Shown one piece after another: positions 573-64,000 of a DNA stretch of 64,000 nucleotides. This stretch comes from an uncultured Verrucomicrobiae bacterium. GTDB taxonomy: Bacteria; Verrucomicrobiota; Verrucomicrobiia; Chthoniobacterales; UBA10450. The first letter of the stretch is position 1; each line of letters starts with the position of its first letter. The stretch lies in assembly GCA_963726745.1 (NCBI GenBank), contig CAVSDR010000006.1:192001-256000 (forward strand), given 5' to 3'. Both the position numbers and the translations under genes were made by a program. Below the pieces are notes generated by a model that was given only the letters and a program-made list of their open reading frames with translations, ran no database searches and was not told the origin of the DNA.

Positions 573-899
573 ATGGCCAATTCCCCGATCGACCGCCCGA
601 ACGTCCTCCCGCTGGAAGGCGAAATCGATCTGCACGTTTCCCCGCGCATCGCCGCCTCGTTAGGCGCGATGGTCGCGCAAAAGCCGGCGCAGCTCGTGGT
701 CGATCTCACCCAGGTGAGCTACATCGACAGCTCCGGGCTCGCGGTCTTGATCGAGGCGATGCAGAACGTGGCCGGCTACGGTGGGAAGTTTGCCCTCGCC
801 GGCCTGCAGGAAAGCGTGCGCCCGATCTTCGAAATCGCGCGGCTCGACCAGGTCTTCCGGATTTATCCGGACGTCGACTCCGCGCTCGCGGCTGCCTGA
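573..899 (+). CDS. STAS-domain anti-sigma factor antagonist (RsbV/SpoIIAA-like)
   Basis: LEGEIDL...VVDLTQVSYIDSSGLAVL with the phosphorylatable Ser; ATG at 573. Confidence 0.9.
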   Translation: MANSPIDRPNVLPLEGEIDLHVSPRIAASLGAMVAQKPAQLVVDLTQVSYIDSSGLAVLIEAMQNVAGYGGKFALAGLQESVRPIFEIARLDQVFRIYPDVDSALAAA

Positions 900-1978
900 A
901 GCAGGATTGCGAGCGTCTCCTCGACGTTCCGCTCGATCGGAAACTGCGCGGCCCGCTCGAGGATCTTCGGCCGCGCCGCCGCCCGCCGTGCAGGTTCGCG
1001 CCAATGCTCGATCGCGGCCGCGACCGCCTCGCTATCGTTCTCCGGCAGCACGCTCCCGTGCACGCCATCCTCGATCACTTCCGCAAAGCCGTTCGCCGTC
1101 GTCGTGATCACCGGCAGCCCGCTGGCTAAAGCTTCCAGGCAGGCGTTGGAAAACGGATCGTAAAGCGTCGGCAAAACAAAAAGATCGGCCGCGGCGTAGA
1201 GCGCCGGCACATCGTCGACTTCGTCCAGGAATTGCACCCCGGGCCCGGCATACTTGGCCGCATCCCCTCGCCCCGCGACCAGCAGACGCAACGTCTTGTC
1301 GGCTAATTTCCCCAGCGCCTCGACCGCCTGCCGCAGGCCTTTGCGCTCCCAGCCGGAGCCGACGAAGAGCAGCGCCACTTCCTCCTCCCCTAAATTTAGC
1401 CGGCGCCTGGTCGCCGCGCGGCTTTCGCTCGTTAGGCGAAAACGCTCCAGCGGCACGCCGTTGTAGACCACCTCGATCCGCTCCGCGGGATAACCGGAAG
1501 CTTCGACGATTTCCTCCCGCACCATCGCCGAGTTTGCGATCACGCGGCCCGCGCCGCCGCGGGCGAAAAGTGATTCCTCCAGGCGCAGGACGTCGCCGTG
1601 TTTCCCCCGGTTCAAGGCCATGCTCGCGCGCGTGAGCCAGCCGCCGGCGCGTGCCCGCCGCTCCAGCCAGCTCCGGTGCAAGCCATCGCCCGCGCGGAAG
1701 ACATCGCACTTCCAGACGCGTTCGAGGCTCATGACCACGTCGCATTCCAACCGCATCCGCAAGAGCGTTGCCTGGTCGGCAAACTCCACCGGGCTCCGCC
1801 CGCGCAGGCGCTCGATCGGGCCGCAGGACCACTCGTTAGCCGGCCACTCCGCGCCGGTCACGAGCACAGCTTCGTGCCCCCGCGCCACCAGGCCCGCACC
1901 CAGCCGCTTCAGGTAAGCTTCGGCCCCGCCGCTGCGCGAGTAACCACGGCGCAGAAAAGCGATCTTGAGGGCATCCAT
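863..1978 (-). CDS. Glycosyltransferase family 4 (WaaG/RfaG-like LPS core)
   Basis: GGAE motif, LFVGSGWERKG, PTLYDPFSNACLEALASGLPVI. Confidence 0.88.
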   Translation of the reverse strand: MDALKIAFLRRGYSRSGGAEAYLKRLGAGLVARGHEAVLVTGAEWPANEWSCGPIERLRGRSPVEFADQATLLRMRLECDVVMSLERVWKCDVFRAGDGLHRSWLERRARAGGWLTRASMALNRGKHGDVLRLEESLFARGGAGRVIANSAMVREEIVEASGYPAERIEVVYNGVPLERFRLTSESRAATRRRLNLGEEEVALLFVGSGWERKGLRQAVEALGKLADKTLRLLVAGRGDAAKYAGPGVQFLDEVDDVPALYAAADLFVLPTLYDPFSNACLEALASGLPVITTTANGFAEVIEDGVHGSVLPENDSEAVAAAIEHWREPARRAAARPKILERAAQFPIERNVEETLAILLQAAASAESTSG

Positions 1979-2032
1979 GAAGGCGAGAGCGTGGCTTTAC
2001 TTGGCCGCAATCGCCACAATACTTGCAAGGCC

Positions 2033-3235
2033 ATGCCCGGTGAAACCTTAAACGCGCCGCTGCCGGAAAACGCCGCGCCCGCGTCCTCCGCGCTTCCGCG
2101 GAACATGCTCTATTCGATCTTCGCGCGCATTGGCGGCTCAGGCCTGGACACGGATGCCTTCGAGGCCTTGCGTGCTTCGCATCGCGGGGGTTTTCTCGGG
2201 CGCGCGGTGGCTTACGATAACCGGCAAACGGAGATCCCGGCGAAGCTGATCTACTCGCTCCGCTGGCATCCGGTGCGACTGATCTCCTTCATCGAGCGCC
2301 CCTATTACTACGGTGCGAAAAAGAAGTATCTCGACTGGGTCGCCGCCCGGCAGCTCGAGACCGGACGCTACGATCTTTTCCACAGTTGGTCGGGCGATTG
2401 CCTGCAATCTCTGCGCGTGGCCAAGCGGCGCGGCATCCCCTCGTTAGTCGAAATTCCCACCTGGCACCGCGACCGCGGCAAGACTGGCCCGCGCCCGGCG
2501 GCCACCCCCGCGGGGAAGAAGCCGTGGAAGAAACGGCTCCTGCTCGAGCGCGAGCGTTTCATCGAGGAATACGACCTCGCCGACCTGCTCGTGGTCCTTT
2601 CGGAAAAAGCCGCCGAGACCTTCCGCGTGCAAGGCTTCCCCGAGAGCAAACTTTACTACCTCCCGCGCGGGGTGGACGTCGACCGTTTCCGTCCCGGCGT
2701 GCGGCCGCCGGTCTTTCGCGCGGTTTTTTCCGGCGCGCTGATCGAGCGCAAAGGCATCCATCATTTGCTCGAGGCCTGGCATCGCCTCGACCTGAAGAAC
2801 GCCGAGCTTTGGCTGGTCGGCTCGGTGCATGCGGAAGCCAAGCCGCACCTCGAAAAGTTTCACCGCGACAACATCCGCGTGGTCGGCTTCGCGAAGAATC
2901 CCGAGGAATATCTCAGCCAAAGCACGGTGCACGTTTTCCCTTCGACCTGCGAAGGGAGCGCGAAAGTGACCTACGAAGCCGCGGCCTGCGGATTGCCGCA
3001 AATCACCACGCGCGAAGCGGGCGATGTGGTTGTCGATGGCGTGCAGGGTTTGATCGTGCCGCCTAATAACGTCGACCGCCTGGCGGAAGCGATAAAGCAC
3101 CTCTACGACCACCCGGAAATCGTCGAGCGCATGAGCGTGGCCGCGCGCGAGCGGGTGGTGCAAAACTTCACCTGGGATCACTTCCGCACGCGTCTCCTCA
3201 TCGGCTACCAGCGCGCGATGGCGATGAAGCGCTAG
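2033..3235 (+). CDS. Glycosyltransferase family 4
   Basis: RKGIHHLLEAW, FPSTCEGSAKVTYEAAACGLP; start chosen at ATG 2033. Confidence 0.85.
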   Translation: MPGETLNAPLPENAAPASSALPRNMLYSIFARIGGSGLDTDAFEALRASHRGGFLGRAVAYDNRQTEIPAKLIYSLRWHPVRLISFIERPYYYGAKKKYLDWVAARQLETGRYDLFHSWSGDCLQSLRVAKRRGIPSLVEIPTWHRDRGKTGPRPAATPAGKKPWKKRLLLERERFIEEYDLADLLVVLSEKAAETFRVQGFPESKLYYLPRGVDVDRFRPGVRPPVFRAVFSGALIERKGIHHLLEAWHRLDLKNAELWLVGSVHAEAKPHLEKFHRDNIRVVGFAKNPEEYLSQSTVHVFPSTCEGSAKVTYEAAACGLPQITTREAGDVVVDGVQGLIVPPNNVDRLAEAIKHLYDHPEIVERMSVAARERVVQNFTWDHFRTRLLIGYQRAMAMKR

Positions 3236-62402: not shown

Positions 62403-62452
62403 GGCGGGGAAGATAAGGAAAACTGCCGGCGCCGCCACGCAGAGTTTGCCGG

Positions 62453-62800
62453 CTATTTTCGCTGGCCGCCGGAACGCGGGTCGAGGCGGAAGACGGTTTC
62501 GCCCGGCTTCATCAAATCGAGCCGATCGCGCGCGATCGTCTCGAGATAGGCGGGATCGGTCTTGAGCAAGTTCACCTCGCGCGAACGCCGGGCCAGGACC
62601 AGGCGTTGCTCGGTGACCTTCGCCTGGAGGTTCTCGATTTCCGCCCGACTGGCGGTGAGCTTTTTGTGCTGCGGAATGAAAAGGCTGAGGACGATGAGGA
62701 GAAACGCGAGCACGAGCAAACCGCGCACGATGCGGTTGAGCTGTTGCCAGATCGAAGCTTCGCGGCGCGCTCGAAAATCGCCGTCGCCAGGGTGATCCAC
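62453..62800 (-). CDS. ftsB: Septum formation initiator (FtsB/DivIC family)
   Basis: Single TM helix, coiled coil, DP.Y.E..ARD.L...KPGE.VF; lies directly after eno. Confidence 0.82.
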   Translation of the reverse strand: MDHPGDGDFRARREASIWQQLNRIVRGLLVLAFLLIVLSLFIPQHKKLTASRAEIENLQAKVTEQRLVLARRSREVNLLKTDPAYLETIARDRLDLMKPGETVFRLDPRSGGQRK

Positions 62801-64000
62801 TAGCGCATCTTACCGCCGTAGACGGCGTTGTCACCAAGTTCCTCCGCGATGCGCAGGAGCTGGTTGTATTTCGCCACCCGATCGGTCCGGCAGAGCGAGC
62901 CGGTCTTGATCTGGCCGGCGTTGGTCGCGACCGCGATGTCGGCAATCGTGGTGTCCTCGGTCTCGCCGGAGCGATGGCTGATGACCGCGGTGTAGTTGTT
63001 TTCCGTGGCCAGGCGAATCGCGTCGAAAGTCTCGGTGAGGGTGCCGATTTGGTTCACCTTCACGAGGATGGAATTGGCCACGCCTTGCTCGATCCCTTTG
63101 CGCAGGAAGTCGACGTTGGTCACAAAAAGATCGTCGCCCACGAGCTGGATCTTGCTGCCTAAACGGTCGGTCATTTTCTTCCAACCGGTCCAATCGTTTT
63201 CGGCGCAGCCGTCCTCGATCGAGATGATCGGGAATTTTTTCGAGAGCGACTCGTAAAGATCGATTAACTCCTCCGCGCTGCGCGACGAGCCGTCCGATTT
63301 CTTGAAGACGTATTGGCCGCTGGCCTTGTCGTAGAACTCCGAGGAAGCCGCATCGAGCGCGATGAAGATTTGCTCGCCTAACGAGTAACCGGCGCGCTCG
63401 ACCGCGGTCGCGATCGACTCGAGCGCGTCCTCCGCGCCTTTCAGCTTCGGGGCGAAACCGCCCTCGTCGCCGATCGCGGTGGAGAGGCCACGCTCCTTCA
63501 GCACGGCCTTGAGCGCGTGGAAAACTTCCGTGCCGTAGCGCAGCGCCTCGCCGAAAGTAGGCGCGCCTTTCGGCATGATCATGAACTCCTGGAAATCGAT
63601 CGGCGCATCCGAGTGCGCGCCGCCGTTGAGGATGTTCATCATCGGCACCGGGAGCGTGACCGCCTTCGACCCGCCGAGGTAGCGGAAGAGCGGCAGCTCG
63701 GAAAAGGCGGCCGCGGCGTGCGCATTGGCTAACGAGACGCCGAGGAGCGCGTTCGCGCCGAGGTTTTGCTTGTTCTTTGAGCCGTCGAGCTCGATCAGCT
63801 TCCGGTCGATCGCTTCCTGGTCGAGCGCATCCGCGCCCCGCAAGCCGTCGGCTATTTTCTCGTTCACGGCCGCGACCGCTTTGCGCACGCCTTTGCCGCC
63901 GTAGCGCGCCTCGTCCCCATCGCGCAATTCCCACGCTTCGTGCTCGCCGGTGCTGGCGCCGCTCGGCACCGCGGCGCGTCCAAAGGCGCCGCCTTCCAGC
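62800..64000 (-). CDS. eno: Enolase, 5' end outside window
   Basis: [53 protein letters not shown]. Confidence 0.98.

Follow-up and report, generated by a model that had tools for sequence, protein, structure and literature searches.

The closest described relatives of the element reported here are the DNA uptake sequences (DUS) of the Neisseriaceae and the uptake signal sequences (USS) of the Pasteurellaceae, which are short, non-palindromic words that recur about every 1-2 kb, equally on the two strands, in each usable frame and also between genes. To our knowledge, sequence-tagged self-recognition of DNA is established for two families of Proteobacteria only. The receptor of DUS is ComP, a minor pilin, and DUS dialects exist. 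These words originate by point mutation, are rare in atypical genes, are conserved across a family with flank differences between its genera, and inflate the tripeptides that they encode. For USS and DUS, one study reports a rough doubling of the encoded tripeptides and the lack of uptake sequences in genes without homologues (PMC2817400). In cyanobacteria, the highly iterated palindrome HIP1 (GCGATCGC) is hyper-abundant, frame-independent, and conserved over a large clade, with a reported excess of 15-300 fold for which selection and a nucleoid role have been proposed (PMC5861425). Chi and the chromosome-orienting words KOPS/AIMS (FtsK-orienting polar sequences and architecture-imparting sequences) are over-represented, family-conserved, asymmetric 8-mers read by a conserved protein, and the Dcm/Vsr very short patch repair of E. 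coli produces a directional, DNA-level excess of CCWGG in which one word gains over its one-step neighbours. Here, we describe a word that shares features with these systems, M1 (core TCGTTAG), in a stretch of 64,000 nucleotides (G000:C6:192001-256000, hereafter the window) from an uncultured Verrucomicrobiae bacterium, whose genome, G000, comprises 3,406,779 bases in 7 contigs with 63.6% G+C. M1 is a real, strong, DNA-level feature which is kept far above mutational equilibrium by a directional force across a family of Chthoniobacterales, and there is good support for placing it among the frame-independent words of the DUS/USS/HIP1 kind. The same genome carries another such word, M2, which is independent of M1.

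In the window, we found 38 exact copies of CTCGTTAG (24 plus, 14 minus), whereas 100 shuffles that preserved dinucleotides averaged 0.88 and never exceeded 3. This recount agrees, position by position, with the original prediction, which had been made from the letters of the window. About nine variants had also been proposed; all eight of those listed are present and one more lies at 43343, bringing the core 7-mer TCGTTAG to 47 copies (38 plus 9 NTCGTTAG variants) against a shuffled mean of 3.27 and maximum of 11. Across the genome, TCGTTAG occurs 2,025 times (991 plus, 1,034 minus), or about once per 1.7 kb, TCGTTA 2,436 times, CTCGTTAGG 960 times, and CTCGTTAGGC 820 times, the last against 33 for the reversed word. 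For a codon-preserving null, we called genes crudely with a codon-likelihood model that had been trained on long open reading frames (ORFs), which yielded 2,915 genes spanning 86% of the genome, and shuffled synonymous codons inside each gene in 10 rounds. The sense/antisense counts of TCGTTAG in genes were 973/619 against codon-shuffle means of 60.7/69.3, and those of CTCGTTAGGC were 398/244 against 4.2/5.9, an excess of 12-60 times. Since the shuffles retain the TTA and CTA codons, themselves inflated by M1, this null is a conservative one, and the enrichment claimed from the window stands.

The full word reads W-S-S-D-C-TCGTTAGGC, its logo starting from W(-5) S S D(-2) C(-1), and the logo is identical in the 248 wholly intergenic and the 1,478 wholly coding copies. 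Variation is tolerated at positions 8-9 but hardly at the first T; most single-base variants are at or under the null, the exceptions being TTGTTAGGC and changes at the final two positions. As tolerance differs by position, the pressure on M1 is graded, as expected of protein-DNA recognition. No conservation was seen past about 14 bp, and a dispersed repeat of the repetitive extragenic palindrome or miniature inverted-repeat transposable element type was rejected on this ground, on the location of 78% of the copies wholly inside genes, and on the lack of insertion at orthologous sites.

Two features of the variants bear on the origin of the word. The one-step synonymous neighbours of M1 are depleted (TCGTTGGGC, 8 against 53.8 expected; TCGCTAGGC, 0 against 4.8), and the commonest near-miss, TTGTTAGGC, is a C-to-T change at a CpG with 101 copies against 4.4 expected. 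Both would suit an M1 produced by biased mismatch repair or gene conversion tied to DNA modification, of the Dcm/Vsr or HIP1-methylase type, as would the xseA gene of the window, which breaks at an M1 copy and could hint at a modified base disturbing base-calling. Nevertheless, 94 of the 101 copies of TTGTTAGGC, the TTG form, are in the Leu-Leu-Gly frame; of 1,018 Leu-Leu-Gly sites, 99 use the spelling TTG TTA GGn, while none of 1,001 Ala-Leu-Gly sites uses GCG TTA GGn. This near confinement fits the best possible spelling and not deamination decay. M1 has no palindromic sub-site of the methylase type, and a site-autonomous process predicts no drop in occupancy beside another copy, such as is described below. 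The gene content also argues against a methyltransferase- or repair-driven motif, which the original prediction had offered as one possibility, with the reservation that incompleteness of the metagenome-assembled genomes (MAGs; 62-96%) weakens all statements of absence made here. Among 34 genomes of the genus, a C5 methylase (PF00145) was found in 10 and is missing from six of the nine densest (G044, G047, G048, G010, G001, and G042), Vsr (PF03852) was found in 6 with no match in G000, and N6_Mtase (PF02384) was found in 24 and is missing from the dense G047 and G049, whereas an N6_N4 methylase of about 275 amino acids is shared by 32, the word-free G002 included. None of these families follows M1 density by presence or absence. 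The excess of CCWGG is modest and the M1 effect is tens of times larger; moreover, unlike the Dcm/Vsr case, G000 has no Vsr, the genus has no consistent C5 methylase, and M1 occupancy depends on neighbouring copies. Unlike HIP1, a palindrome with two orphan methylases, M1 and M2 are asymmetric, without a palindromic sub-site, and follow no methylase family. We therefore consider a modification-linked repair bias very unlikely.

M1 is read in many frames. In genes, 674 copies are read in sense as TCG-TTA-G, 179 as nTC-GTT-AG, and 105 as T-CGT-TAG with a stop, while 312 antisense copies are read as CTA-ACG-A and 299 as nCT-AAC-GA; a further 308 copies are intergenic and 147 lie across gene boundaries. 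The claim that the word is frame-independent and not a peptide repeat is thus borne out, with copies in every non-stop frame, in gaps, and across gene ends, and a peptide- or RNA-level motif is ruled out by the use of all non-stop frames, of both gene strands (958 sense, 612 antisense), and of the same logo in gaps. M1 provides the stop codon of 297 of 2,908 genes, 119 of which end in T-CGT-TAG and 178 in C-TAA-CGA. These genes are not shorter (median 259 and 286 amino acids against 277 for the others) and are no more frequently followed by a close same-strand gene than elsewhere, and where the release-factor gene of the window ends, low-density relatives of G000 show an ordinary stop at the equivalent position. 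We conclude that the stops are natural ones and that M1 was built around them. Stop usage in G000 is odd for a genome of 63.6% G+C (TAG 1,026, TGA 1,014, and TAA 873 in our gene calls), and copies of M1 and M2 together contain 398 of the 2,913 stops.

The proteome also bears the mark of M1. The word spells 495 of 776 Ser-Leu-Gly tripeptides (64%), 156 of 252 Pro-Asn-Glu, and 105 of 229 [CRSG]-Leu-Thr-[RS], and it accounts for 23% of the TTA codons and 22% of the CTA codons in the genome. Pro-Asn-Glu, with 252 occurrences against a Markov expectation of 97.6 (2.58 times), is the second most over-represented tripeptide among those with at least 100 copies, and Ser-Leu-Gly reaches 776 against 471 (1.65 times), comparable to the inflation seen with DUS and USS. 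Some M1 sites alter the protein, e.g., Asp-Ser-Leu-Gly against Asn-Asn-Glu-Gly in aligned relatives. In the lowest decile of genes by third-position G+C (GC3), the density of M1 is 0.308 per kb against about 0.57 elsewhere, and the longest M1-free stretches, of up to 25 kb (contig C7), tend to low G+C (0.58-0.62).

We aligned the window from 57500 to 62500 with the syntenic DNA of four relatives (G005, G024, G002, and G013; about 72% identical). The M1 sites align without gaps: for example, TCG/TCA CTC GGC in G005 and G002 corresponds to TCG TTA GGC in G000, G024, and G013. Six of the eight G000 sites in these 5 kb are common to G024 and G013, one of them being present in all five genomes; two are private to G000, and G024 and G013 have 7 further sites of their own. 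M1 is thus created in place by ordinary point mutation wherever protein coding tolerates it, and insertion scars or a mobile repeat were rejected as no indels occur at orthologous sites in the five-genome alignment.

The same alignment bears on whether M1 could be an artefact of sequencing, base-calling, or assembly. G000 and other assemblies of few contigs do hold frameshifted genes. In the window, xseA (exonuclease VII large subunit, 52732-54080) is present as two ORFs in different frames, the first of which ends at the TAA of an M1 copy (53769-53775); this could be a real pseudogene, a long-read indel error, or an error provoked by a modified base at M1. A class-V aminotransferase gene (57698-59229) likewise occupies two overlapping frames. 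Within the genus, purH is split only in few-contig assemblies (G002, G047, G048, G014, and G003), which suggests residual indel errors in long-read-type MAGs, G000 included. No public sequencing runs were listed for the window. Against an artefact, independent, fragmented assemblies have M1 at the orthologous positions with an unchanged amino acid; assemblies of 100-450 contigs carry it at equal or higher density (e.g., G024, G013, and G010); most of the 36 genera sampled are enriched; and M1-ended genes are neither shorter nor more often trailed by a close same-strand gene. The orthologous sites, the dense fragmented assemblies, and the family-wide occurrence refute the basecalling artefact that the original prediction had weighed, and we regard such an origin as next to impossible.

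M1 is spread through one whole Chthoniobacterales family and is essentially absent from the other Verrucomicrobiota searched. Among the 34 genomes of the genus, TCGTTAG is about as frequent as its reversed control (ratio 0.7-1.1) in G002, G003, G012, and G005 and is 5-6.7 times as frequent in G000, G001, G042, G044, G010, G013, G047, G048, and G024, with all intermediate grades; two of these nine dense genomes, G001 and G042, are unpublished, and the tally leans partly on both. The low-density G002 has 335 M1 copies against 477 of the control word, and a k-mer scan covering 254,080 bases out of its 3.7 million revealed no alternative iterated word, or dialect. A tree of purH from 28 of the 34 genomes (five had no match at threshold and the partial G004 was excluded) was poorly resolved as to the grouping of the dense genomes. 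In a survey of the family (151 genomes, 36 genera), the M1 10-mer is enriched in most genera, e.g., with 1,338 copies against 55 of the control in G097, 1,000/23 in G153, 908/25 in G110, 714/31 in G105, and 616/38 in G053, and stays near the control level in genus g22 (G087, 6 against 15), G072, and G103. G097 reaches 1.40 copies per kb with a stricter core and a different upstream flank, which is dialect-like. Density thus ranges from none to 1.4 per kb inside the family and roughly 10-fold inside one genus. In the other families of the order, no enrichment was found (16 genomes, 0-14 copies), and across 401 genomes of the phylum TCGTTAGGC is usually about tenfold rarer than its reversed control; the sole raised genus outside the family is g99 (family f24; G520, G532, and G547), weakly so, with 61-134 copies of TCGTTAGGC against 49-66. 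Clusters of the M1 10-mer in G028, of another family, had been considered as transferred DNA and proved to be internal repeat units of about 110 bp that are 87-95% alike; they lie at L169 (G028:C7:91000-97732) and L170. The lineage-specific, DNA-level signal proposed for this genome is hence well supported, but M1 is found family-wide, well beyond G000, which the proposal had missed.

Ranking all 8-mers against the codon-shuffled null placed a second family of words directly behind M1; this second family had been overlooked in the window. The 8-mers of this word, M2, include GGCTAATT (334 against 19.8) and GCTGGCTA (515 against 70.9), and its logo, S-A-W-n-K-Y-G-Y-Y-GGCTA-W-TT-Y, is asymmetric. 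GYYGGCTAWT has 830 copies in the genome (424 plus, 406 minus) and 29 in the window (1298-63856) against 0.43 expected. M2 copies are mostly within genes, occur on all contigs, and hold the stop codons of 101 genes beyond the 297 of M1; the per-bin densities of the two words are uncorrelated (r = 0.05). A chimeric bin as the origin of two words was rejected, with both on all 7 contigs and M2 present in at least 6 copies in each of 64 bins of 50 kb. M1 is family-wide and old, and M2 is narrower. GYYGGCTAWTT exceeds its reversed control in G000 (622/9), G011 (290/15), G015 (169/21), G017 (129/19), G009 (92/15), G018 (72/20), and G045 (51/6), is at background in the M1-dense G013, G024, G047, G048, and G010, and elsewhere in the family is raised only in the unpublished G055 (118/13) and in G076 (39/9). 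When aligned by eye, the M1 and M2 logos share a T-A-G-S-C centre, and two M2 copies at 44427-44444 overlap head to head to form the perfect palindrome GGCTAATTAGCC.

Neither word is oriented along the chromosome. M1 lies on all 7 contigs at about 30 copies per 50 kb, and its plus:minus split is 153:146 in 100-kb bins of positive GC skew and 756:770 in those of negative skew; M2 gives 36:35 and 152:149 between bins of opposite skew. The KOPS-like control GGGCAGGG flips in the same bins, from 13:4 (positive) to 28:85 (negative). Hence, the Chi- or KOPS-like recombination site put forward in the original prediction fails, as words of that class are co-oriented with replication, while M1 and M2 are evenly split between bins of opposite skew. 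The enrichment of Chi is also far weaker than that of M1. Two other words of G000 were observed in passing: CCCGACACCA is strongly strand-polar, 35:1 in bins of negative GC skew, and TTGGCGTTGG is split 78:47. The words could also be signals of another transfer vehicle, such as packaging by a gene transfer agent or phage, nicking by a relaxase or type IV secretion system (T4SS), or a Chi-like action on incoming DNA, and their reader could be mobile and common to soil lineages that are unrelated. This would suit the patchiness of M2, which, besides G000, is found in some members of the genus and in one genome each of two other genera. Published work on HIP1 also points this way, reporting a methylation-dependent boost of transformation, which could be a Chi-like or uptake effect (10.1101/2024.09.10.611283), and a correlation with T4SS genes together with a proposed role as an uptake signal (PMC13756078). 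Nevertheless, the lack of polarity in both words on contigs where GGGCAGGG is polar argues against a classical Chi/KOPS role, and one copy per 1.7 kb far exceeds the needs of packaging or nicking. We rate such a vehicle as quite unlikely.

The spacing of M1 copies is not random. Short gaps are scarce: an exponential distribution predicts about 228 below 200 bp and 108 were counted, and direct and inverted close pairs are depleted alike; avoidance of slippage between direct repeats was rejected as the cause, with inverted pairs just as depleted. We binned the permissive tripeptide sites of G000 by their distance to the nearest other copy. Occupancy by M1 is 19 of 60 (32%) under 100 bp, 47 of 104 (45%) at 100-200 bp, 590 of 892 (66%) at 200-1,600 bp, 81 of 153 (53%) at 1,600-3,200 bp, and 19 of 48 (40%) beyond 3,200 bp. 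A close second copy is less favoured, because regional heterogeneity would give the opposite trend at short range. In H. influenzae, one study similarly reports no gain in uptake from two USS within 100 bp (PMC7811141), so that USS resemble M1 in how little a nearby second copy adds.

Such spacing would also be compatible with M1 and M2 as selected sites for abundant chromosome-structuring or self-marking proteins, serving nucleoid organisation or nuclease protection with no biased transfer. M1 is family-wide and graded in density, its short-range spacing is more even than random (108 gaps against about 228), the self-avoidance over about 200 bp is word-specific with no cross effect between M1 and M2 and would suit a protein footprint or oligomer, and two independent words could coexist like two DNA-binding proteins. 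Selection and a nucleoid role have been argued for HIP1 as well (PMC5861425). On the other hand, no candidate for such a protein was found, per-site selection must recode 64% of Ser-Leu-Gly and alter amino acids, close relatives thrive without M1 (e.g., G002, at 335 against 477), and the depletion in atypical genes suits slow accumulation and not need. Selected binding sites are thus, in our view, somewhat unlikely as the explanation of the two words.

As our tentative first choice, held with less than even confidence, a drive linked to uptake or recombination, of the DUS/USS kind, would maintain M1. M1, which is made in place by point mutation where coding allows, would be a word in double-stranded DNA read by one putative sequence-specific protein. 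Cells of the family may preferentially take up, or recombine, fragments bearing the word, and alleles gaining a copy would then spread through transformation, a transmission bias amounting to molecular drive. In this way, M1 could fill the sites at which synonymous change permits it, distort the proteome, take over stop codons, and remain scarce in genes of recent acquisition. M2 would be a similar but independent word, with a separate reader and a narrower distribution. The competence and pilus genes of the genome include comEC, dprA next to the gene for SSB, a pilM-to-secretin cluster, and genes for PilC, for pilins, for ATPases resembling PilB (four) and PilT (six), and for a small HhH protein that is ComEA-like, and comEC, found in the window as originally annotated (PF03772), is present in 33 of the 34 genus genomes. 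An HNH endonuclease gene at L175:6680-7261 (G000:C6:382680-383261) adjoins a pair of PilT-like ATPase genes.

Several observations weigh against an uptake-linked drive. All five of the motif-poor genomes searched encode DprA and secretins, and a GspK-like minor pilin occurs in all three motif-poor and both dense genomes searched for it. As the core competence machinery is also found in word-poor genomes, it is without power to explain the roughly 10-fold density range in the genus, and ComEC, DprA, the secretin, and the GspK-like pilin were rejected as presence/absence correlates of M1 density. No match to the receptor family ComP_DUS (PF16732) exceeds the cut-off of 27.3 bits in G000; the one match, at 21.9 bits, covers just the N-terminal pilin helix of a 222-amino-acid pilin-like ORF. 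The short-range effect is weak in a second genus, where 27 of the 56 sites within 100 bp of another copy are occupied in G097 compared with 109 of the 167 farther away, and no deficit of short gaps is seen in the raw histogram of that genome (390,860 of 3.2 million bases). M1 pairs within 60 bp number just 25, of which 10 are inverted, among the 2,025 copies of G000, and terminator-type pairs are essentially absent; among USS, by contrast, such pairs are common, and 17% of USS are reported within 30 bp of another (PMC7811141). M1 is built from the rare codons TTA and CTA, whereas the frames of uptake sequences are reported to be linked to preferred codons (PMC2817400). Furthermore, M1 occupancy is undiminished near M2 (57 of 76 within 100 bp), and the words are therefore not interchangeable, unlike an uptake step in which any tag would do. 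In sum of its differences from DUS and USS, M1 is almost without inverted terminator pairs, uses rare codons, supplies 10% of all stop codons, varies in density from none to 1.4 per kb in one family and even within a genus, and shares its genome with a second independent word. An uptake sequence, as first suggested from the presence of comEC, remains the best statistical fit, but comEC, dprA, and the secretins are found equally in relatives without the word and do not single it out. In the open-access literature, we found nothing on the M1 word or on uptake sequences or natural transformation in this lineage, and for the string TCGTTAG there were only primers among the matches listed.

The copies of both words in the window and the associated features are given in Table 1. 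The non-coding copy reported at 22659 does lie in a riboswitch, within the RF00174 match.

Table 1. Genes, riboswitch, and copies of M1 and M2 in the window (positions counted from the first letter of the window).
Feature	Position	Strand	Remarks
comEC (DNA-import channel gene)	39809..42349	-	PF03772 189 bits, DUF4131, Lactamase_B
Cobalamin riboswitch	22501-22717		Rfam RF00174, 49.5 bits; upstream of TonB-dependent receptor; M1 within aptamer match
Release-factor gene	61262-62281	-	stop is reverse-strand TAA of M1 copy 61259..61265
M1 (core TCGTTAG)	657..663	+	
M1	1429..1435	+	
M1	1833..1839	+	
M1	2441..2447	+	
M1	3942..3948	+	
M1	6961..6967	-	
M1	8514..8520	-	
M1	9192..9198	-	
M1	13126..13132	+	
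M1	14181..14187	-	
M1	15819..15825	-	
M1	18231..18237	-	
M1	21671..21677	-	
M1	22660..22666	+	in cobalamin riboswitch
M1	23499..23505	-	
M1	23537..23543	+	
M1	24030..24036	+	
M1	28682..28688	-	
M1	29508..29514	+	
M1	30054..30060	+	
M1	31151..31157	+	
M1	32583..32589	+	
M1	35819..35825	-	
M1	36687..36693	+	
M1	38611..38617	-	
M1	40432..40438	+	in comEC
M1	40533..40539	+	in comEC
M1	41821..41827	-	in comEC
M1	42356..42362	+	
M1	43343..43349	+	
M1	44850..44856	+	
M1	46143..46149	-	
M1	47768..47774	+	
M1	49680..49686	-	
M1	52548..52554	+	
M1	53769..53775	-	TAA closes first piece of split xseA
M1	56414..56420	-	
M1	58463..58469	+	orthologous site in G024 and G013 (alignment)
M1	59134..59140	+	common to all four aligned relatives (alignment)
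M1	59339..59345	+	G000 only of five aligned (alignment)
M1	59944..59950	+	TCG/TCA CTC GGC in low-density relatives (alignment)
M1	60577..60583	+	common to G024 and G013 (alignment)
M1	61007..61013	+	G000 only of five aligned (alignment)
M1	61259..61265	+	at release-factor stop
M1	62022..62028	+	common to G024 and G013 (alignment)
M1	63378..63384	-	
M1	63729..63735	-	
M2 (GYYGGCTAWT)	1298..1307	+	
M2	3754..3763	-	
M2	7322..7331	+	
M2	8267..8276	+	
M2	9144..9153	+	
M2	11468..11477	-	
M2	13306..13315	+	
M2	17483..17492	-	
M2	17644..17653	+	
M2	18278..18287	-	
M2	19071..19080	+	
M2	24384..24393	-	
M2	25510..25519	-	
M2	27763..27772	+	
M2	30107..30116	+	
M2	31768..31777	-	
M2	32634..32643	-	
M2	34288..34297	-	
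M2	39546..39555	+	
M2	40107..40116	-	in comEC
M2	42239..42248	-	
M2	44427..44436	+	overlaps 44435..44444 head to head
M2	44435..44444	-	
M2	45246..45255	-	
M2	56247..56256	+	
M2	58089..58098	+	at end of gene called 57189-58094
M2	58534..58543	+	
M2	62448..62457	+	
M2	63847..63856	+	

HIP1 is now a suspected third case of sequence-tagged self-recognition, and if a drive linked to uptake or recombination is the correct explanation of M1, an equally strong word in another phylum, in a soil family that is abundant and uncultured, would indicate that the phenomenon is widespread and would point to natural transformation, or an exchange related to it, as a force that shapes the genomes of soil bacteria. 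M1 and M2 flag accessory or recently acquired DNA, and they skew the codon, stop-codon, and tripeptide statistics used by annotation and by detectors of horizontal gene transfer. The graded density of M1 (about 0 to 1.4 per kb in more than 150 sequenced relatives), together with the different distribution of M2, is a good natural experiment for the search for a reader. It is conceivable, but unlikely in our estimate, that M1 is one case of a portable or deeply conserved genome-word system with one reader specificity (T-Y-GTTAG-S-Y) across unrelated soil lineages, of which M2 would be a second module. Should such a portable reader exist, a transferable protein or small set of genes would reshape thousands of sites, codons, stops, and proteins of its host genome, and the word might mark a DNA-exchange community shared across phyla.

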